A stretch of DNA of 54,993 nucleotides from a virus (lineage: Duplodnaviria > Heunggongvirae > Uroviricota > Caudoviricetes), in IMG/VR virus record IMGVR_UViG_2923302340_000009, positions 1 through 54,993 of that record; one strand, given 5' to 3'. Positions 16,554 to 37,790 of the stretch are shown in pieces. The first letter of the stretch is position 1. Every line of letters starts with the position of its first letter. A program made the translations under genes and the position numbers. The notes below the pieces were generated by a model that worked only from the letters and a program-made list of their open reading frames with translations, made no database searches and was not told where the DNA came from.

Positions 16554-18125
16554 TTACTGAGAGCTCAGATCAACTTTCCAGGGCAACAGATCGCGTACCC
16601 GGTTTGCCGGCCAGTCCTGGATATGTTCAATGACGTAGCGCAGCCACTTTTCTGGCTCCACATTGTTCAGACGGCATGTGCCGATCAGCGAGTACAACAC
16701 CGCCGCATGTTCACCACCGCTGTCGGAACCCGCGAACATCCAGTTTTTCCGGCCTACGGCCACTCCCCGTAAGGCGTTCTCTGCGATGTTGTTGTCGATT
16801 TCCACCCAGCCATTACTGCAGTACACGTTCAGTGCATCCCACTGTTTCAGCAGGTATGCGAACGCTTTTGCCGTATCTGAGTGACGCGACAGTGTTTTCA
16901 TCTGTTGCTGTATCCAGTCATACAGTGACTGCATCAGTGGCGCGGCTCTGGTTTTTCTTGCCGCCAGACGCTGTTCTGCTGAACAGCCCCGGACCTCTGC
17001 CTCGATGGCATACAGTTCACCGATACGCTGCAGGGCTTCCGTGGTGATGTCGGTGGGCGCTCTTGCATGCACATCGTGGATTTTTCTCCGGGCATGAGCC
17101 ATACACGCGGCTTCCGTTATTCTGCCGGATTCGTATAACGCCCGGTAACCACCGTAAGCATCGGCCTGAAGCACACCGCTGTAACCGGCCAGGTGATTTT
17201 GTGGATGGATACCTTTCCGGTCCGGACTGTACGCGAACCAGACCGCCGGGGGCATCTGTGAACCGGCGTTACGGTCATCACGGACGTAGACCCACAGCCG
17301 GGCTGTCCGGGTTTTACCGCTGCCCGGCTCCTGGACCGGGACGGGGATATCATCAGCATGGACTTTACCGGGCATCAGCACATACTGGCGCAGGACGTCA
17401 TACAGCGGCTCCAGTAGTTCAGCAACGGCACCTGTCCAGCGCCCCAGCGTGGCGCGGCTCAGCTCCACACCCTGACGGCGGTATATCTCTGACTGGCGGT
17501 ATAACGGCAGATGGTCTGCATATTTTCCGGTGACGACATGGGCCAGGAGCCCCGCTCCGGCATAACTGCGTGCAATGGGTTTTGAAGGTACTGGTGCCTG
17601 CACGATATGGTCGCACCGGCAACAGGCCAGTTTCGGACGTTGTGTTTCGATAACCTTAAAGGCGCTGCTGATAAGCTCCAGTTGCTCTGACACATCACAT
17701 CCCAGAGAACTGAGTTCACCACCACAGGCCGGACAGCATTCCTCTTCCGGCCGGATAACCCGGGTTTCACGGGGAAGTGAGGCCGGTAACGGTTTACGGG
17801 CTGAAGACTGGCGCAGGGCGGATGGCAGTACCGGGTCATATTGCTCACCCAGCGTTTCCGCCATTTCTTCCTGAAGTGCGCTGATTCGCTCCTGTGCTTC
17901 CTGTATCTGCCGTTCGGTTTTTGCGCGAAGTTTTTCTGAGCTTTTACCGAACTGCATACGCTGCAGTTTCGCAACCAGCGCCTTCAGCCGGTTGATTTCG
18001 GAAGCATAAGCCGCCACCCGCTGTGAGAGCAGGCGGTTGTATTCAGCCATCTGGCGTATGGTGTCCTGTTGCGTCTGCAACAGTGCCCGCAGGCGGGCGT
18101 TCTCATGAGCAAGTGAGGTGTCCAT
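16554..18125 (-). CDS. tnpC: IS66-family transposase (TnpC/orf3)
   Basis: 523 aa with an N-terminal leucine-zipper-like coiled coil, a CxxC...CxxC zinc motif and a DDE-type core typical of IS66 orf3. Confidence 0.9.
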
Positions 18126-21710: not shown

Positions 21711-22424
21711 CCGGGACTGCAGTGTCTCCCGGACGTCATCCGGAAGATGGCTGTAGGGATTGCCATCCACCTTATGGCTGCCGCTGTAAATCAGCGTGAT
21801 TTCCACGCCCTGTTTCTCCAGCGCAGCACCGTAATTGCTGTGAGCCATCATGACGCCGATGGAGCCTGTCCGGGCGGTCTGCGTGACCAGACGCCGGGAG
21901 GCGGCGCTGGCAAGCAGCTGACCTGCACTGCAGTTCATGTCGTTGGCCAGCGCCCATACCGGTTTTATGTCTCGCACACGGGCGATGATGTCAGCACAGT
22001 CAAATGCTCCCGCCACCATCCCGCCCGGTGTGTCCATATCCAGCAGAATGCCGTCCACCATCGGATCGCTGGCAGCCTGTTGCAGACGGGCGATAATGCC
22101 GTTGTAACCGGTCATCCCCGAGTACGGCTGCAGCGCCCGCGTCCGGCTGACCAGCGTACCGGACACCGGCAGCACGGCGATGCCGTTCATGACCTGATAG
22201 CTGCGGGCCTGTCGTGGTCCGTCATCATCACCGGATATCGCCAGCGCCGCGGGTGCCTCTCCGGCAGTCAGGCTGTCGCCGGATACTGCATCCGTCAGGC
22301 GGCTGATCCCAAGCTGGCCTGCAAGCGCACAAAAGAAAACCCGCGCATAGGCGGGTTCAAGCATCAGCGGCTCATTAAAAGCCATGCTGGCAATATGCGG
22401 GAGATTACGCAGCTCTGCTGTCAC
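21105..22424 (-). CDS. C: head maturation protease C
   Basis: A GTG start after GAGGAGGAG gives VTAELRNLPHIASMAFNEPLMLEP..., 439 aa as in lambda C. Confidence 0.93.
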   Translation of the reverse strand: MTAELRNLPHIASMAFNEPLMLEPAYARVFFCALAGQLGISRLTDAVSGDSLTAGEAPAALAISGDDDGPRQARSYQVMNGIAVLPVSGTLVSRTRALQPYSGMTGYNGIIARLQQAASDPMVDGILLDMDTPGGMVAGAFDCADIIARVRDIKPVWALANDMNCSAGQLLASAASRRLVTQTARTGSIGVMMAHSNYGAALEKQGVEITLIYSGSHKVDGNPYSHLPDDVRETLQSRMDATRQMFAQKVSAYTGLSVQAVLDTEAAVYSGQEAIDAGLADELVNSTDAITVMRDALDARKSRLSGGRMTKETQSTTVSATASQADVTDVVPATEGENASAAQPDVNAQITAAVAAENSRIMGILNCEEAHGREEQARVLAETPGMTVETARRILAAAPQSAQARSDTALDRLMQGAPASLAAGNPASDAVNDLLNTPV

Positions 22425-23178
22425 TCTTCTCCTCCTCTGTTGATTGTCGCAGTCCGGATTCAAATGCCGCAGCCGCCCAGGCGGGCGGTTTAAGACCGGC
22501 TGCACGGCGCTCCATCGTTTCACGGACCTGCTGGGCAAAAATTTCCTGATAGTCGTCACCGCGTTTTGCGCACTCTTTCTCGTAGGTGCTCAGTCCGGCT
22601 TCTATCAGCATCACCGCTTCCTGTACTTCTTTCAGACCATCGATGGCCATACGACCGGAGCCTATCCAGTCACAGTTCCCCCAGGCACTGCGGGCTTCCT
22701 GAAAGCTGAAGCGCGCTTTTGAAGGTAACGTCACCACGCGGCGAACGATGGCCTCTTCCAGCCAGCACAGAAACATCTGGCTCGCCTGACGGGATGCGAC
22801 GAATTTTCGCCGCCCCATAAAGTACGCCCACGACTCGTTCGCGCTGGCCCGTGCCGTGGAGTAGCTCATCTGGGCGTAATTCCGGGAAAGCTGCTCATAC
22901 GAGACACCCAGCCCGGCAGCGATATACCGCAGCAGTGACTGCTCAAACACGGAGTAGCCGTTATCCGTATCCTGAGCCGTCTGCAGGTTCAGTGAGTCAC
23001 CCGGCATCAGGTGCGGCACTTTTGCGCCTCCAAGCCGGACCGGCGCTGCGGCGTAATACGCGGCAATTTCACCAATCCAGCCGGTCAGCTTGTCCCGCTG
23101 CTCCTGACTGTTCGCGCCCAGAATAAAATCCATCGCTGACTGCGTATCCAGCTCACTCTCAATGGTGGCGGCATACAT
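22405..23178 (-). pseudogene. B: portal protein B, 3' part (codons 277-533)
   Basis: MYAATIESELDTQSAMDFILGANSQEQR...EEEKSDSRAA is the C-terminal 257 aa of lambda B. It is separated from the 5' part by 10.9 kb. Confidence 0.93.
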
Positions 23179-23186
23179 CGCCTTTA
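23170..23186. repeat. island-proximal att repeat (core cata[c]atcgcctt)
   Basis: The 13-mer catacatcgcctt (23172-23184) recurs as cataaatcgcctt at 34072-34084, exactly 10,900 bp away. The extended match is 14/17. Confidence 0.85.
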
Positions 23187-23993: not shown

Positions 23994-24275
23994 TTACCGC
24001 CGCAATCGTTCCGGCTTCTTCCACTGGTAAGTATTTTTCGCGCTCTCCCTCCGTTGTTGAGAAAGGCGACGATATGCCAGCAACTCAAGGACTCTTGTTC
24101 GTATGTTGCGCATATCCACGCCGTTAAGCTCAATACCGTCACGGCGCATCACCTCAGCCACTACACGCACATAATTATCTGCGGTCACGCTGTCCGGCTG
24201 CGTGGCCTGTTCGTCATGCTGCTTGCTGATTCCACAAGCACGGCGGATTAATCGCAGTATTTCGGATTCAGTCAT
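23994..24275 (-). CDS. hypothetical basic protein downstream of the island small terminase
   Basis: 93-aa ORF, 12 nt after the terS-like stop. No family recognised. Confidence 0.5.
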   Translation of the reverse strand: MTESEILRLIRRACGISKQHDEQATQPDSVTADNYVRVVAEVMRRDGIELNGVDMRNIRTRVLELLAYRRLSQQRRESAKNTYQWKKPERLRR

Positions 24276-24286
24276 AGCGTACTACG

Positions 24287-24829
24287 TTACTTATCTTTAT
24301 TCGGCTGCAACTTATCCGGTACGTTTCCGGCAGTTTCCATCAGATAATCGGACAGCATCAGCGGTATGTTTTCGTCAAGTTTTGCGCATGCGTTACAGGC
24401 TCTGATAACTTCTTTTTTCAGTCCATCCAGCATAGACGGCTTCATGTCGGGAAACTTCCTTGTCATGGCAAGCGGCAGGCTGTCCATGATTGAAGAAATC
24501 TGACTCGCCAATTTTGAAAGCACGTATATACAAAACGCTGTATCAATAACGTCGCCGCGTTCGCGCTCGTTTTTAAGCTCCTGCGCCTCTGCCTGTGCTG
24601 TCAGCAATCTGATCCTGACTCGTAGGAGTTCATCATCATCAATCTCGCCTTTGTCGTCTGTAATCTGGTTAATTGCATTGCTAACCCGATTGTCTATTAC
24701 GCTGGCAACATCATAAAACGCCTCGCGGCCTTTACGTTCAACGGGAGTCACTCCCCACTTGTCGAACGCTGTCGCACTTACACGGCAGCTTTGCGCCATG
24801 TTTTTTTTGTTCATCAGGTGCGATTTCAT
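24287..24829 (-). CDS. small terminase subunit, Nu1-like (island-encoded)
   Basis: The C-terminal half (AQAEAQELKNERERGDVIDTAFCIYVLSKLASQISSIMDSLPLAMTRKFP...) aligns with Nu1 in this same window (AQADAQELKNARDSAEVVETAFCTFVLSRIAGEIASILDGIPLSVQRRFP...). The N-terminal wHTH part is diverged. The start at 24829 follows a GGGGA RBS; the ORF track starts at a GTG at 24841. Confidence 0.85.
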   Translation of the reverse strand: MKSHLMNKKNMAQSCRVSATAFDKWGVTPVERKGREAFYDVASVIDNRVSNAINQITDDKGEIDDDELLRVRIRLLTAQAEAQELKNERERGDVIDTAFCIYVLSKLASQISSIMDSLPLAMTRKFPDMKPSMLDGLKKEVIRACNACAKLDENIPLMLSDYLMETAGNVPDKLQPNKDK

Positions 24830-24841
24830 CAATATCCCCAC

Positions 24842-25030
24842 TTAAGTAATGTTTCAGGTTGGTGTATTGACTTTATCTTTTCCTTTTTATTCATAGAGAT
24901 AGAGCGAACAACAAAACCACCACCAGCACCCGAAAAAGGCTCATAAATAGCGAAAACCCGCGAGGTCGCCGCCCCGTAGCCTACCGGATCACCGGAAAGG
25001 ACCCGCCAGCCAGAGCGGGCCCTAATTTCA
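24842..25030 (-). promoter_or_regulatory. island cos site (cosQ-cosN-cosB); cosN 12-mer at 24963-24974
   Basis: Positions 24941-25012 are 64/72 identical to the prophage cos (37706-37777). cosN on the coding strand reads GGGCGGCGACCT, the canonical lambda cohesive end. The cosB side toward terS is unrelated to lambda. Confidence 0.85.
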
Positions 25031-25414
25031 TCAACCAATCAGCTTATAGCGACCATCCCGTGCATTGCGGCGTACACGCTCAATCTTGAGGCATAGCGCC
25101 GCATCTGGCTTTTTTGGGACAGGTACGCGGCAATATTCAGAAGCGCGAGGAATATTATTTATCCAGTCGATCACTTCACTTAAATACCAGGCCTTACGCC
25201 CTTCCGTAACCTGCACACGCTCCGGGAACTCTCCACTAGCCTCAAGGTTTAGCAGTGTACGACGACTCAGGGTTGTAATTTCCATCACCTGATTCATATC
25301 AACAAGGCGCTCGCTTAAACACATTTTGTCAGCGATAGCTTTTAATTCCTCTACAGCTGGATTCGGGTACATCATTTCGGCAATTGGCTTAAGGTCATTG
25401 TAATCATTCTGCAT
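25031..25414 (-). CDS. AlpA/MerR-type HTH protein (island late region)
   Basis: 127 aa. The central segment LVDMNQVMEITTLSRRTLLNLEASGEFPERVQVTEGRKAWYLSEVIDWI fits the AlpA-family HTH pattern. Confidence 0.65.
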   Translation of the reverse strand: MQNDYNDLKPIAEMMYPNPAVEELKAIADKMCLSERLVDMNQVMEITTLSRRTLLNLEASGEFPERVQVTEGRKAWYLSEVIDWINNIPRASEYCRVPVPKKPDAALCLKIERVRRNARDGRYKLIG

Positions 25415-25425
25415 TGTATCCCCCT

Positions 25426-25767
25426 TTACACACGAGCCAGCGGCTGAACAGAAATACCTGAGCCAACAAACGCTGCAACCTTTACTGACAGTTCTTTAAC
25501 AGACTCAGGCCAGTTCAGAGCATCAACATTTAAGACACCTGTCTTATAGACCTGAGCCTGTGTTTTTTTCGCGGTGTCGATTTGTACAGCGGAAACATAA
25601 ACCGCTTTACCTACGCTCGAACCATCCCATACCACCAGTGCACCTGTTGCATCTTCCTGCATCAGTGGCGTAAATGCAGGAATTACCCCTTTATTAGCTG
25701 AAAATATCCCCAGCGTAGTCACCAGTGCTTCAGTGCCAGCCATGAGTTCAGTGTAATGAGTAGCCAT
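25426..25767 (-). CDS. head decoration protein D homologue (island-encoded)
   Basis: 113 aa with a strong RBS. It shares the D pattern TPLM..D....LV.WDG....AV...YK.G......L.WPE......AF.G..ISV with the helper D at 20763-21095. Confidence 0.75.
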   Translation of the reverse strand: MATHYTELMAGTEALVTTLGIFSANKGVIPAFTPLMQEDATGALVVWDGSSVGKAVYVSAVQIDTAKKTQAQVYKTGVLNVDALNWPESVKELSVKVAAFVGSGISVQPLARV

Positions 25768-25776
25768 TGCTCCCCC

Positions 25777-26823
25777 TTAGCCAATGCGAACGGTAACAAA
25801 ACGATTGATGCGGGCCGGTATTGGCTGTGGTGCTGAATGTGTCTGCACATATTCAATAGCCGGATCACCAGGCACAATATAGTTTTTCGGTGCAAGTTCG
25901 GCTTTAGTCAGCCCCATTCGGATTAGCTCCGGATCCTGAATACCGCCATAGGCGACAATCCCCTGAAGAGCCGTATTGCCAAGCACCATCAAATCAGGAT
26001 CAAGGAAATGTTTTTCTGTTCCGTCCTCGTCGGTATAACGCCCGCTGTAAACAACAATCGCAACATCGCCCATATACCCTTTAAAACTCACCGAATCACC
26101 AAGGTCTTTAAGGGCCGTTTCCAGTTCGGAATTAGAACCACGACGGGTATCCAAAGCCTCTTTTATCGCTCTGAATGAACGGTATTTCTTCCATACATTA
26201 CCACCCATAATGATGATATTAGTGACGCCCTCACTAAATTCTGCGTAGCTCTCAATATCATCATTTGGATCAAAAGTTTCTTTATCCTTACCTGACCACT
26301 CAGTACCGCCAGACTGAGTGATGATATTTTGTGGTTTTATATTCCAGTCCAGCTCATAACGTTCAATACCATCGCCCTCAATGATATTTTTCCCCGTTGT
26401 GATTGCCTGAACAGCAAGCCATTCAATACGTGCACGAATAGCTTTAGCCTGATTTACAATCGCCTGTTTAACTTTAATATTACGCGCCCCAAAAGCATTG
26501 TATTGCTCAGGTGACACACCAGCAGGGCGCACAGCTAACTTATTTGGATCAATGCTGCTTTTCGGCTTCATATAACCTGGACGAATTGTTTTTGATTCGT
26601 ATCCCTCATCTCGTGAAACTTTACTGCCCACCATAGGAGAGCAAAACGCCGCGATCGGGATATTTGGATCGTCGATCGTATCAAGAATAATGTCTCTCGA
26701 TTCAAACATTACCGAGCGAGTGAAAAACAAACTGGTAAACAACGCATTTAATTTTTTTTGCACATCTTCAGCATTAGCCACCTGCACAAGCTGTGTAGGC
26801 GAATATAAATCAACCATACTCAT
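25777..26823 (-). CDS. major capsid protein E homologue (island-encoded)
   Basis: MSMVDLYSPTQL... compares with lambda MSMYTTAQLL. A long collinear similarity includes GGTEWSGKDKETFDPNDDIESYA...DTRRGSNSELETALKDLGDSVSFKGYMGDVAIVVYSG against the helper E. The start could be 26823 or 26817. Confidence 0.88.
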   Translation of the reverse strand: MSMVDLYSPTQLVQVANAEDVQKKLNALFTSLFFTRSVMFESRDIILDTIDDPNIPIAAFCSPMVGSKVSRDEGYESKTIRPGYMKPKSSIDPNKLAVRPAGVSPEQYNAFGARNIKVKQAIVNQAKAIRARIEWLAVQAITTGKNIIEGDGIERYELDWNIKPQNIITQSGGTEWSGKDKETFDPNDDIESYAEFSEGVTNIIIMGGNVWKKYRSFRAIKEALDTRRGSNSELETALKDLGDSVSFKGYMGDVAIVVYSGRYTDEDGTEKHFLDPDLMVLGNTALQGIVAYGGIQDPELIRMGLTKAELAPKNYIVPGDPAIEYVQTHSAPQPIPARINRFVTVRIG

Positions 26824-26988
26824 CCTCTTTACATTCATTACAAATAATTGTGAATATATTCTATTACCGATGTCTGCTATGCGAACACATGCAACCAAGT
26901 GCAATGTTGTATAAAATATGCCGTAACAACTTCAGTGCTGATAATTCGTGTTAATGTATTTACTTCCTTTGGTCGGGATTTATGTAGC

Positions 26989-30535: not shown

Positions 30536-30720
30536 TAATGCACCTCTTTTAATTCATACACTGCTGAAATAATGACTTGTGATAAGCCATATTCTGATGA
30601 TTCGCTTCTCACCGCAGCAATAGCCGTCTGAACATTAACAGCCTTCACATTCTGAGCGATACCAATTGTGTGGCCTATTGGGTTAACAGCTCGGGCAAAT
30701 ACACGGAAGGTTTTAAGCAT
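30535..30720 (-). CDS. hypothetical protein
   Basis: 61-aa ORF. Its start overlaps the stop of the upstream gene (ATGCTTAA). Confidence 0.45.
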   Translation of the reverse strand: MLKTFRVFARAVNPIGHTIGIAQNVKAVNVQTAIAAVRSESSEYGLSQVIISAVYELKEVH

Positions 30721-30910
30721 GACTCACTCCCTGGCGGATTTTTGCAGCGAATACAGCAACACAACCGGACGGGCAACGGCTACGCGCTTCGCGTTCCGTC
30801 CAGGCGGTTACGTGGATGATTTGAGATTCTCCGGCACTCAGTGCCAGAAAACGCCACACAAAGGCCGTTTGTGTGTGTACAAGGTGTGGTATATGATTTA
30901 CAGCAACCAT
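30713..30910 (-). CDS. Icd-like small protein (cell-division-inhibitor-like family of P1/P4-type elements)
   Basis: 65 aa, MVAVNHIPHLVHTQTAFVWRFLALSAGESQIIHVTAWTEREARSRCPSGCVAVFAAKIRQG, with an AGGAG RBS. It is the only credible part of the 356-aa tracked ORF. Family recalled from memory. Confidence 0.45.
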   Translation of the reverse strand: MVAVNHIPHLVHTQTAFVWRFLALSAGESQIIHVTAWTEREARSRCPSGCVAVFAAKIRQGVSHA

Positions 30911-30939
30911 AACGGCTCCTAGTTTACGTTGTTGGTTAG

Positions 30940-30973
30940 ACGCCCCGTATGTGTTCCCAGCACTGCGGGGCGT
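30940..30973. other. 8-bp-stem hairpin (acgccccg-N18-cggggcgt) in the leader of the island early operon
   Basis: Read directly. It lies between the operator repeats and the Icd-like start, so it is a candidate leader or antisense RNA element. Confidence 0.45.
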
Positions 30974-31001
30974 TGCTCTTTGTATTTCAACAATCCTTTC
31001 G

Positions 31002-31079
31002 GTGTGTTTCATGTTATGAGCGCATGAAACACACGTCAAGGCTTTTTGTATTTCTTTTTTTGTGTATACTGAAACACAC
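31002..31079. promoter_or_regulatory. operator-like repeats in the divergent control region
   Basis: A perfect 12-bp inverted repeat gtgtgtttcatg (31002-31013) / catgaaacacac (31023-31034) is present. A third half-site tgaaacacac lies at 31070-31079, just upstream of the RHH-like gene. Confidence 0.65.
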
Positions 31080-31100
31080 CGATGATTAGGAGTTTCAGAA

Positions 31101-31406
31101 ATGGCAACGGCTAACAAAAACGCAAAATCACAACTGACAACTGTCAGAGTCCCACTAGATGTTATGCAAGGGATGGAATCCGTTAAGCTGGACGGTGAAA
31201 GCAATGCCGGATTTATCGTAACCGCCATGCGCGGAGAAATAGCCCGCCGCCAAGCAGAAGGCAGCGGAGAAAATCCCCTTGTGTCGTCACTGGATGCCCT
31301 GGCTAAGGTCGAACAAATCGGCATCAAAGCAGCCGAGGAGATCGGGCAACTCGTCACCGTCGCGCGTGAAGAACTCCAGCGACGCAAGGTCAAAGAGCAT
31401 GAATAG
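31101..31406 (+). CDS. putative ribbon-helix-helix regulator (candidate island repressor)
   Basis: 101 aa with an AGGAG RBS. The N-terminus QLTTVRVPLDVMQGMESVKL...GFIVTAMRGEIARRQ fits a beta-strand plus two helices. It is divergent from the replication operon. Confidence 0.45.
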   Translation: MATANKNAKSQLTTVRVPLDVMQGMESVKLDGESNAGFIVTAMRGEIARRQAEGSGENPLVSSLDALAKVEQIGIKAAEEIGQLVTVAREELQRRKVKEHE

Positions 31407-31463
31407 CCAATATCAGCGCCATAGTTTGAGGAACGCAGGCGCATTGCTTTACAGGACAGCACC

Positions 31464-31643
31464 ATGAGCGACACAGAATCAACCAAAACACCATCACCAA
31501 CTCGTAAGAGACGACGCAAAAATATAGCGCATGAACATGAATCAGAAAGATTCGCACCTTGTTCGTTTGCTCTTGAGAAATTCCTTAAAGAGCACAGGAA
31601 AAAGCTCTCGTTGCAAACCTTGGAACGAACCAAATCTGACTGA
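31464..31643 (+). CDS. possible 59-aa basic protein
   Basis: ATG at 31464 with AGGA 7 nt upstream. It encodes MSDTESTKTPSPTRKRRRKN... and is followed by a terminator. It falls below the ORF-track cutoff. Confidence 0.35.
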   Translation: MSDTESTKTPSPTRKRRRKNIAHEHESERFAPCSFALEKFLKEHRKKLSLQTLERTKSD

Positions 31644-31709
31644 TCACATTGCCCACCAGCCGCAAATGTGGCATTGTTGGTGATGCTTTTGTTTTCCCTT
31701 GTTCCCACT

Positions 31710-31739
31710 GGCGACCCTTTTGCGGTCGCCTTTGTTTTG
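31710..31739 (+). terminator. rho-independent terminator
   Basis: The hairpin ggcgacc-cttttgc-ggtcgcc is followed by tttgttttg. Confidence 0.75.
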
Positions 31740-32318
31740 TCACTGAATGCGGTTACCAAAGTAAAACTCAGGCTGATATTCACGTATCAGCGTTTTTTCT
31801 TCTTCCTCCAGCTCACGCTTTTTGCGCTTACATGCCTGTAGCTCCCTCCCCTTCTCGCTGGCACTTATTTGATATTGCTCTTTACGGCGGGAAAAATCCT
31901 GTAATGCACCCCACGGGATACCATAAGTCCCCGTTTTTCTGATACCTGGTATCACATTTCTGAATACCCAGTTACTGAAACGATGAGCAAATGTGCCAGG
32001 CGTCGTTGCTTTGCGGCTGCGGGCTATTAGTTTGTAGAAACCTGACTCAGAGATAATTCTCATATTCTGATTTCCTCCTGGGGTGTAAGTTAAATTTACT
32101 CCCTTTTCATCATCATCAAGCATCTGCAACGCCGTACGCGAATTGGTTAGTTCCAGCGCAGCACAAACATCTTTTGCAACAAACCACGGATCGCCGTTCA
32201 GATACACCACACGAACGTTCACACTATCAAAGCGCAGAACGACGAGATCACGAATATCGCAGAATTTTTTCACTGGACGAGCGTACCCCTTGCCCGTCAC
32301 GGCAATATTTTTATTCAT
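31740..32318 (-). CDS. Bro-N domain protein (antirepressor-like)
   Basis: 192 aa. VRVVYLNGDPWFVAKDVCAALELTNSRTALQMLDDDEKG...ISESGFYKLIARSRK matches the Bro-N pattern. Confidence 0.75.
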   Translation of the reverse strand: MNKNIAVTGKGYARPVKKFCDIRDLVVLRFDSVNVRVVYLNGDPWFVAKDVCAALELTNSRTALQMLDDDEKGVNLTYTPGGNQNMRIISESGFYKLIARSRKATTPGTFAHRFSNWVFRNVIPGIRKTGTYGIPWGALQDFSRRKEQYQISASEKGRELQACKRKKRELEEEEKTLIREYQPEFYFGNRIQ

Positions 32319-34023: not shown

Positions 34024-37004
<2,981 letters not shown>

Positions 37005-37030
<26 letters not shown>

Positions 37031-37550
37031 TCAGCAACCCCGGTATCAGTTCATCCAGCGCGGCTGCTTTGTTCATGGCTTTGATGATATCCCGTTTCAG
37101 GAAATCAACATGTCGGTTTTCCAGTTCCGGAAAACGCCGCTGCACCGACAGGGGGATCCCGTCGAGAATACTGGCAATTTCACCTGCGATCCGCGACAGC
37201 ACGAAAGTACAGAATGCAGTTTCCACCACTTCAGCGGAGTCTCTGGCATTTTTCAGCTCCTGTGCGTCGGCCTGCGCACGCGTAAGTCGATGGCGTTCGT
37301 ACTCAATAGTCCCTGGCTGGAGATCTGCCTCGCTGGCCTGTCGCAGTTCTTCAACCTCCCGGCGCAGCTTTTCGTTCTCAATTTCAGCATCCCTTTCGGC
37401 ATACCATTTTATGACGGCGGCAGAGTCATAAAGCACCTCATTACCCTTCCCACCGCCTCGCAGAACGGGCATTCCCTGCTCCTGCCAGTTCTGAATGGTA
37501 CGGATACTCGCGCCGAAAATGTCAGCCAGCTGCTTTTTGTTGACTTCCAT
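37005..37550 (-). CDS. Nu1: terminase small subunit Nu1
   Basis: 181 aa, MEVNKKQLADIFGASIRTIQNWQEQGMPV, matching lambda Nu1. Confidence 0.97.
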
Positions 37551-37790
37551 TGTTCATTCCACGGACAAAAACAGAGAAAGGAAACGACAGAGGCCAAAAA
37601 GCCCGTTTTCAGCACCTGTCGCTTCCTTTCTTTTCAGGGGGTATTTTAAATAAAAACATTAAGTTACGGCGAAGAAGAACGGAAACGCCTTAAACCGGAA
37701 AATTTTCATAAATAGCGAAAACCCGCGCGCCTTCCGCCCCGTAGCCTGCCGGATCGCCGGAAAGGACCCGCCAGCCATTCGGGTTTACTT
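37551..37790 (-). promoter_or_regulatory. prophage cos (cosB-cosN-cosQ); cosN 12-mer at 37728-37739
   Basis: The cosB and cosQ flanks match my recollection of lambda almost base for base. The coding-strand cosN reads GGGCGGAAGGCG instead of GGGCGGCGACCT. Confidence 0.85.

Follow-up and report, generated by a model that had tools for sequence, protein, structure and literature searches.

The stretch of DNA analysed here is the whole of the virus record IMGVR_UViG_2923302340_000009 (54,993 nucleotides, hereafter the window), and it holds a lambda-type prophage on its minus strand. The portal gene B of this prophage, hereafter the helper, hosts a helper-embedded phage-inducible chromosomal island (HE-PICI), which lies inside the gene, is co-oriented with it and spans 10,899 bp between its two att cores. 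This island has a cos site of the lambda type, made of cosQ, cosN and a private cosB, directly followed by a gene for a small terminase subunit (TerS) of the Nu1 family. Such a cos–terS cassette is probably the means by which satellites of this kind steal the packaging motor of a phage. Its elements are listed below, base pairs being counted from base 1 of the cohesive end.

24998–25004, minus strand: island cosQ, GGGTCCT, identical to that of the helper and at the same ungapped spacing to cosN
24963–24974, minus strand: cohesive end of the island cosN, GGGCGGCGACCT, with base 1 at 24974, inside the 65/72 match described below
24830–24962, minus strand: island cosB, which separates cosN from the start codon of terS, 133 bp (178 bp in lambda)
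24907–24924 (bp 51–68), minus strand: cosB box 1, GGTGGTGGTTTTGTTGTT, equivalent to R3 and proposed as the site of the island TerS
24855–24869 (bp 106–120), minus strand: cosB box 2, CAATACACCAACCTG, at the position equivalent to R2, with a putative function
24287–24829, minus strand: island terS, 180 residues, Nu1 family, with a winged helix-turn-helix of the N15 type

The corresponding elements of the helper, all found in the same window, are the following.

37571–37739, minus strand: helper cosN (GGGCGGAAGGCG, 37728–37739) and lambda-type cosB with R3, R2 and R1
37005–37550, minus strand: helper Nu1, 181 residues, intact and identical to the Nu1 of locus L002
35105–37030, minus strand: helper large terminase subunit (TerL) gpA, 641 residues, presumed partner of the island TerS; its N-terminus matches that of lambda gpA

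The core of the island cos site (24941–25012, minus strand) can be aligned without any gap to positions 37706–37777 of the helper, 65 of the 72 bases being identical. The initial annotation had counted 64; what it described is real and was placed correctly. Twenty shuffles of the window gave no score higher than 38/72. Two of the seven mismatches fall in the cosQ–cosN interval and the other five within the 12-nt cohesive end. The cosQ heptamer GGGTCCT is that of lambda, and the longer motif GGGTCCTTYC is invariant when the cos regions of 10 distinct island lineages from five genera are aligned. The island cohesive end is that of lambda, and it recurs in the helper cos of L001 and L002, two inspected loci with an identical island, and in the cos of the Escherichia coli phage-inducible chromosomal island (PICI) EcCICFT073. 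It is the cohesive end of the resident prophage that is unusual, with 5 of 12 bases departing from those of lambda and of the island. Damage to the prophage cosN could be ruled out as an explanation, since this variant is shared by PhiR46_1, an inducible phage. Cutting evidently takes place at both variants, given that the gpA proteins of helpers with either of them are only 4–6 residues apart over 641; the same figure applies when the gpA of this helper is compared with that of other helpers of the same island. The substitution T466I is the sole gpA change common to the two phages with the variant cosN.

Similarity between the island and the helper ends at about bp 34 from the cohesive end. 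Downstream, the helper has its R3 (37672–37687), R2 (37620–37635) and R1 (37571–37586) sites, with 0–2 mismatches; no lambda R-like site with up to three mismatches was found in 24830–24962, and box 1 of the island was not found in the helper cos. The initial description of this cosB as unrelated to the lambda R and I sites holds for its sequence, and does not hold for its layout, the two boxes being placed at the R3 and R2 positions (bp 53–68 and bp 105–120 for the helper sites). Box 1 has the consensus GGTGGTGGTKTTGTTRTT, which is kept in all 10 lineages while its flanks diverge, and its exact match defines a single locus in the window, for 0.12 expected by chance. Box 2 (consensus CAATACACCMACYTG) is kept in 9 of the 10, and its distance to box 1 is fixed, without gaps: the 37 nt that separate the two boxes have diverged in sequence but not in length. 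The other conserved parts of the alignment are cosQ, cosN with CGCTATTTATGAG, and the ribosome-binding site. The (GGT)n part of box 1 varies from three to five units among otherwise near-identical PICIs (L003 compared with L004 and L020), and a (GGT)2(GTT)4 version is seen in L025.

A comparison can be made with phage N15, whose R3 site has been described at bp 48–60 and reads GAGGTTGTTGTTT (PMC9026076). Box 1 is in register with this site, and both have a G/T triplet repeat at bp 51–59 (GTTGTTGTT in N15, GGTGGTGGT in the island). A Pseudomonas prophage with a DNA-binding domain of the N15 type and its own TerL has GGTTGGTTGTTGTGTTGTT just upstream of its terS. G/T triplet repeats are thus associated with N15-type domains in three independent lineages, which is the best argument for box 1 being the TerS site. 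The N15 cosB has been reported to consist of a single R3 (PMC9026076), whereas in the island family another box, at the R2 position (bp 106–120), is conserved as well. When box 2 is read as an inverted box 1, only 7–9 of 12–13 positions match. One T/G position covaries between the two boxes, but it reflects a single phylogenetic split and is only suggestive. A search by eye of the inter-box spacer revealed no consensus (WATCAANNNNTTR) for the integration host factor (IHF). No additional copy of box 1 lies inside terS, which therefore has no analogue of the rR2 site of N15.

A related arrangement is found in EcCICFT073, the PICI in which the cos1–rppA module was described (Fillol-Salom et al. 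2018, 2019; PMC6092414, PMC6739421; reviewed by Murialdo and Feiss 2022, PMC9026076). Its cos1 site (L014, 17528–17640) has ACCACCACC at bp 55–63, which is the inverse of the GGTGGTGGT found at bp 51–59 in the island. The segment holding this repeat is the one proposed as the Rpp site by Murialdo and Feiss (PMC9026076). The cosB of TerS-type and Rpp-type PICIs may thus share ancestry despite their different specificity proteins.

The start of the island terS could be placed at the ATG at 24829 (bp 146), rather than at the GTG at 24841, from its conserved N-terminus MKSHLMNKK and the GGGGA ribosome-binding site upstream. The protein is a genuine member of the Nu1 family. It matches Pfam Phage_Nu1 (PF07471) with 85.7 bits (cutoff 30) over residues 61–143 and phrog_57 over residues 1–176 (E 5e-51), and it is 37% identical to the helper Nu1 overall (E 4e-36). 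The pairwise alignment by domain gave the following identities between the island TerS and the helper Nu1.

Nu1 residues 1–68, DNA-binding domain: 35% identity
Nu1 residues 69–99, linker: 33% identity
Nu1 residues 100–140, oligomerisation: 49% identity
Nu1 residues 141–181, TerL-binding tail: 39% identity

These values temper the contrast initially drawn between a Nu1-like C-terminal half and a strongly diverged N-terminal half, which was overstated. The C-terminal half had been regarded as the preserved gpA-binding part, but the tail is in fact the most variable part of the family; this impression may be explained by the Pfam profile, which aligns only with residues 61–143. Nor is the N-terminal half an orphan. 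The closest phage protein is gp1 of N15, with an identity of 47.6% over the whole protein and of 56% when the DNA-binding domains alone are compared. The two proteins have in common a shortened wing, the length of the recognition helix and an 11-residue deletion that leaves a short helix alpha-3. They differ in their C-terminal halves, that of N15 gp1 being lambda-like (78–80% identical to Nu1), and in their surroundings, since N15 gp1 is next to its own TerL, gp2. A sequence search of the Protein Data Bank with the island TerS returned no match to 1J9I, 6HLK or 6HN7, even at E 10.

Genes of the Nu1 family precede and overlap the gene of their cognate large terminase subunit, a trait that the island lacks, the gene next to terS being a 93-residue open reading frame (ORF). 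As initially stated, the island has no large terminase gene, according both to Pfam scans and to how the Prokaryotic Genome Annotation Pipeline (PGAP) annotated L001 and L002, where the island is identical. Any packaging of the island must then rely on the TerL of a helper. On the basis of the comparisons given here, we consider it slightly more probable than its contrary that the gpA of the resident helper is recruited by an island TerS bound to the island's cosB.

The same slot is known to be used by a different protein. At the roxA/phoQ site, a TerS-type island is syntenic with EcCICFT073, and its terS sits exactly where rppA (c1503, 144 residues) is found. The gene order of EcCICFT073 (int, alpA, DUF4222, primase, single-stranded DNA-binding protein (SSB), gpE-like, gpD-like, small gene, cos, specificity gene, 93-residue ORF) is like that of the present island. 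In both cases a lambda-type cosQ/cosN is associated with a private cosB and with a specificity protein that opens with a winged helix-turn-helix. It could therefore be imagined that the island TerS works as an Rpp does. It would co-assemble with the helper Nu1, through the oligomerisation domain or the dimer interface of the DNA-binding domain, into a mixed complex bound to the island cosB. In such a complex gpA would be brought mainly by the Nu1 tail, and the helper TerS would be required, as for EcCICFT073. The synteny fits this proposal, as do the poorly conserved gpA-binding tail and the fact that residues 100–140, at 49%, are the closest to the helper Nu1. However, the Rpp proteins (135–153 residues) lack the last 30–40 residues, which has been proposed as the reason why they need TerS (PMC9026076), whereas the island protein is a full-length Nu1 homologue with its tail. 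This tail is under purifying selection (omega, the ratio of nonsynonymous to synonymous substitution rates, dN/dS, of 0.07–0.37) and the protein retains three residues of the C-terminal third, P156 and Y162 within the tail and K138 just before it, that are invariant in the island family, N15 and lambda. No relationship between the island TerS and RppA could be detected by BLASTP or hhalign, the sole link being a match of RppA residues 7–47 to phrog_57. Besides, the island DNA-binding domain is devoid of the 11-residue stretch of Nu1 helix alpha-3 that includes Y50 and A55, the sites of Rpp-escape mutations (PMC6739421). Co-assembly with Nu1 looks unlikely, though it is the main alternative. 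It parts from direct recruitment on one prediction, which is whether the helper Nu1 is needed. A further difference from EcCICFT073 is that the island has no second, inverted cos site. The predicted consequence of these differences is that the helper TerS would be dispensable.

The tail raises a separate question, namely which TerL it fits. Its 39% identity to the helper Nu1 is to be compared with the 32% measured, over the same 41 residues, between a lambda-type Nu1 and a 21-type TerS (CFT073 prophage 4). The TerL-binding specificities of lambda and 21 differ, and this difference maps to the small subunit's C-terminal half (PMC9026076), so identity alone cannot show gpA binding. The island TerS might then be matched to the TerL of another, superinfecting helper, the embedding prophage supplying induction and virion parts only, or else it might be part of a mismatched pair in this strain. 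Such a view is consistent with a tail as distant from Nu1 as a 21-type tail, with the island cosN being 5/12 bases off that of this helper and with the occurrence of the same tail type in chromosomal PICIs without a linked helper (L029). On the other hand, the other strains examined have the identical island, TerS included, within the portal gene of a prophage with a near-identical gpA and a canonical cosN, and the gpA likeness across both cosN variants again implies that both are cut. In addition, the tail has the IPxxLxxY[IL] motif of lambda and N15, which is present in all tails except those of the 21 type. We therefore regard a foreign TerL partner as improbable, and more so than co-assembly with Nu1.

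Comparison of homologues provides further insights into how the protein is built. What the family conserves is the DNA-binding domain. Between the TerS of the window and that of L003, identity is 93% for this domain and falls to 54% for the tail, with synonymous divergences (dS) of 0.23 and 1.16, respectively, which points to a mosaic history rather than to faster drift. About 100 full-length homologues show independent assortment of the DNA-binding-domain variants relative to the two tail types that prevail in E. coli (KLDENIP... and VADNLPQ...). A further case is the TerS of a Superficieibacter PICI (L017, 10001–10504). Its DNA-binding domain is 89% identical to that of an Enterobacter HE-PICI (L023), and its residues 100–140 and 141–181 show 83% and 63% identity with their counterparts in the lambda-type Nu1 of the helper. 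By these alignments it is a natural chimera between an island-type DNA-binding domain and a lambda-type C-terminal half. It parallels the engineered lambda–21 TerS hybrid, with which TerL specificity was assigned to the C-terminal half (PMC9026076).

These observations lead us to propose tentatively, as a possibility somewhat less probable than its contrary, that cos satellites of enterobacteria have a two-part specificity. A constant private address, made of the N15-type DNA-binding domain and of two boxes, (GGT)n(GTT)n and CAATACACC, would be combined with a swapped tail acting as TerL adaptor. The helper TerS would be dispensable, and Rpp would be the tail-less alternative in the same slot. 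Tails would be exchanged by recombination, sometimes with the Nu1 genes of helpers as in L017, so that a satellite could fit whichever TerL is available. If true, this would provide a natural test of the Murialdo–Feiss hypothesis, in which TerS is required solely for the delivery of TerL.

The cassette is widespread. Homologues at 58–99% identity were found in E. coli, Shigella, Enterobacter, Citrobacter, Kosakonia and Superficieibacter. DNA similar to the island terS is present in 792 of 5426 complete E. coli genomes, for 110 with DNA similar to rppA, a ratio that is only rough because RppB and RppC are too diverged for a DNA search. Every inspected context shows a gpE-like gene, a gpD-like gene, a small gene, cos, and then terS, and no TerL was found in about 25 related islands. 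Chromosomal PICIs (roxA/phoQ, cspD/clpS, yejM region, mug/rpoD) and HE-PICIs in capsid or portal genes make up these contexts. In O157:H7 (L030), a TerS-type PICI occupies the roxA/phoQ site, which EcCICFT073 also uses, and the terS gene is likewise present in the probiotic strain Nissle 1917 (match H93). Of the four loci returned by a search for related loci with one genome per species, two correspond to a Pseudomonas prophage. No homologue above 48% identity was found in the phage or phage-plasmid records searched, which makes this TerS clade satellite-specific. The initial notion of a packaging-specificity module proper to the island is thus supported by the conserved cassette, its purifying selection, the conserved boxes and the replacement of rppA, except that the module is not peculiar to this island.

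Since the late zones of PICIs capture helper late genes (PMC10111431), and since EcCICFT073 can be transferred without its capsid genes (PMC6092414), the cassette might be seen as a decaying remnant of captured phage late genes, without any present packaging role. Several observations make this very improbable. The pairwise dN/dS of terS ranges from 0.03 to 0.20 overall. By domain, it is below 0.4 in nearly all comparisons with unsaturated dS, the exception being one tail comparison near saturation (0.76). Purifying selection thus acts on the cassette in all five genera. The full-length matches, which come from 762 E. coli genomes, have an intact ORF, conservation of the non-coding boxes extends from one genus to another, and the collections searched hold no phage source above 48% identity.

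Direct recruitment of the helper gpA by the island TerS would proceed as follows. Once the helper is induced and the island has been excised and replicated, a TerS dimer would bind box 1 of the island cosB, and probably box 2, perhaps across a bend. The C-terminal tail of TerS would recruit the helper gpA, which would nick the island cosN and package island concatemers into helper-made capsids. With four copies, the island DNA would reach about 43.6 kb, or 90% of the lambda length. The helper Nu1 would be dispensable for transfer of the island, in contrast to the situation of Rpp-type PICIs, and competition for gpA would lower the yield of the helper. Over the whole family, the DNA-binding domain and cosB would act as a conserved address, and recombination would exchange the tail that serves as TerL adaptor.

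Several points weigh against this proposal. The tail is no closer to that of the helper Nu1 (39%) than is compatible with a lambda-versus-21 type of difference (32%), and a search with the C-terminal 88 residues retrieved only fragments of the island family and no phage TerS with a matching tail. The segment nearest to Nu1 is the oligomerisation domain, which would also fit a hetero-oligomer. The model of the island TerS obtained with AlphaFold2 (AF2) is of modest quality (pLDDT, the predicted local distance difference test score, of 66.6), though its topology is that of a winged helix-turn-helix. The change in GGT copy number between L003 and L004 moves the spacing of cosN to the downstream box 1 and box 2 by 6 bp, and in lambda a 3-bp change in spacing is severe (PMC9026076). 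Lastly, two E. coli PICIs encoding a TerS, possibly of this family, have been tested and transferred poorly from their native hosts (PMC6092414).

A strict mutual exclusion between the island and the helper, neither being packaged by the small subunit of the other, had also been put forward. It is doubtful in one direction, because the island DNA-binding domain is of the N15 type and the N15 terminase has been reported to package lambda DNA efficiently (PMC9026076). Before excision, the composite prophage holds two co-oriented cos sites (24974 and 37739), 12.8 kb apart and with different cosB sequences, which could matter for its mis-packaging.

The island module can be placed among known packaging systems. 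With lambda it shares the order cosQ, cosN, cosB and terS, the protein family with its three-domain plan, and boxes at the R3 and R2 coordinates. It differs from lambda by having no R1, no recognised IHF consensus and no adjacent A gene, and by an identity of 33–49% per domain. The Staphylococcus aureus pathogenicity islands (SaPIs) also encode a homologue of TerS, believed to associate with the TerL of the helper and to redirect packaging to satellite DNA. However, they use headful packaging from pac sites, an unrelated TerS family and a separate inhibitor, Ppi, of the phage TerS, whereas the present island has a complete cosQ/cosN. Its TerS is homologous to the helper Nu1 (E 4e-36) and is predicted to use the helper TerL, the other trait of a satellite TerS of the SaPI type.

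The HE-PICIs described by Tommasini, Mageeney and Williams (2023, PMC10111431) resemble the present island in their portal integration, co-orientation, short att block and four-zone gene order, and the portal site B:Phage_portal_2:240-243 is listed in that work. The model element of that study, 11capE, has no terS and has 258 bp of cos in common with its helper at 90% identity; a Nu1-like gene with a private cosB, as found here, is not discussed there. The presence of terS homologues in some Gram-negative PICIs was noted in 2018, with IHE3034 and 18098 named and neither helper nor mechanism studied (PMC6092414), and the literature searched contained no later paper on them. The HE-PICI class, the principle of a private cosB (from Rpp-type PICIs) and the existence of terS homologues in E. 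coli PICIs were thus already known. What is new is that the rppA slot can hold a TerS of the Nu1 family whose DNA-binding domain is of the N15 type, that cosB has two conserved boxes where lambda has R3 and R2, that tails are shuffled and that the cassette is highly prevalent.

Work on packaging redirection by cos-type Gram-negative PICIs has so far been centred on Rpp. If the island TerS does recruit gpA directly, it would represent a third strategy of packaging piracy, beside the pac-type TerS of SaPIs and the Rpp heterodimer. It would also offer a natural, single-polypeptide test of where TerL-binding specificity sits in Nu1, as well as a compact orthogonal pair of cosB and DNA-binding domain for cosmid or PICI-based delivery vectors. 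The question has a bearing on how embedded satellites escape being packaged as part of their helper.

The remaining features of the island and its target are listed below.

34024–34905 and 22405–23178, minus strand: portal gene, split in two and followed by genes C, D, E and tail genes
23177–23184 (terS end) and 34076–34083, strand not assigned: att core AAGGCGAT, 8 bp, bounding the island
25031–25414, minus strand: AlpA-like gene, 127 residues (Pfam Phage_AlpA, phrog_2790), ending 27 bp before cosQ and part of the conserved cassette
23994–24275, minus strand: 93-residue ORF, directly after terS (phrog_1561)

The break in the portal gene falls at positions 238–242 of the Pfam Phage_portal_2 profile, and both portal fragments are truncated. 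The island has the short att identity block of HE-PICIs and no replacement sequence for its target gene. The same island (at least 99.5% identity and at least 80% coverage) is present in 52 complete E. coli genomes, and in the two inspected, L001 and L002, it likewise lies in the portal gene of a similar prophage. Its genes, all on the minus strand, encode in order a 413-residue tyrosine integrase (by Pfam domains), AlpA, BRO, an Icd-like protein, DUF4222, a D5/DUF5906 primase and SSB, then a gpE-like capsid protein, a gpD-like decoration protein and the second AlpA-like protein, followed by cos, terS and the 93-residue ORF. The helper late genes are on the minus strand too, so that they are co-oriented with the main island genes. 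No Rfam match was found in the island, and scans for promoters and terminators near cos gave nothing above chance. A GTG-initiated ORF of 356 residues (30713–31783, minus strand) is probably spurious; it has no Pfam match, and PGAP left it unannotated in L001, whose island is identical.

The 93-residue ORF is 75% identical to the one that follows rppA and cos2 in EcCICFT073 (L014, 18374–18655), and genes of this phrog_1561 group trail the specificity gene in TerS-type and Rpp-type PICIs alike. It is present in the relatives of the E. coli lineage (L001–L006, L020–L022, L029 and L030), and other genes occupy its position in the islands of Enterobacter, Citrobacter and related hosts (L007–L010 and L023–L028). 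On the other side of the packaging module, positions 25426–26904 encode the island's own gpE-like major capsid protein and gpD-like decoration protein; the counterparts of these two proteins in EcCICFT073 are reportedly not needed for transfer (PMC6092414). The slot just upstream of cos holds either the 127-residue AlpA-like gene, as here and in the Enterobacter and Citrobacter islands (this gene is also found in L007–L010 and L023–L029), or a 137-residue protein in islands of the EcCICFT073 type. The latter (phrog_1999; L014, the CFT073 locus, 17084–17497) weakly matches head maturation proteases over their C-terminal part and may thus be a Nu3-like scaffold.

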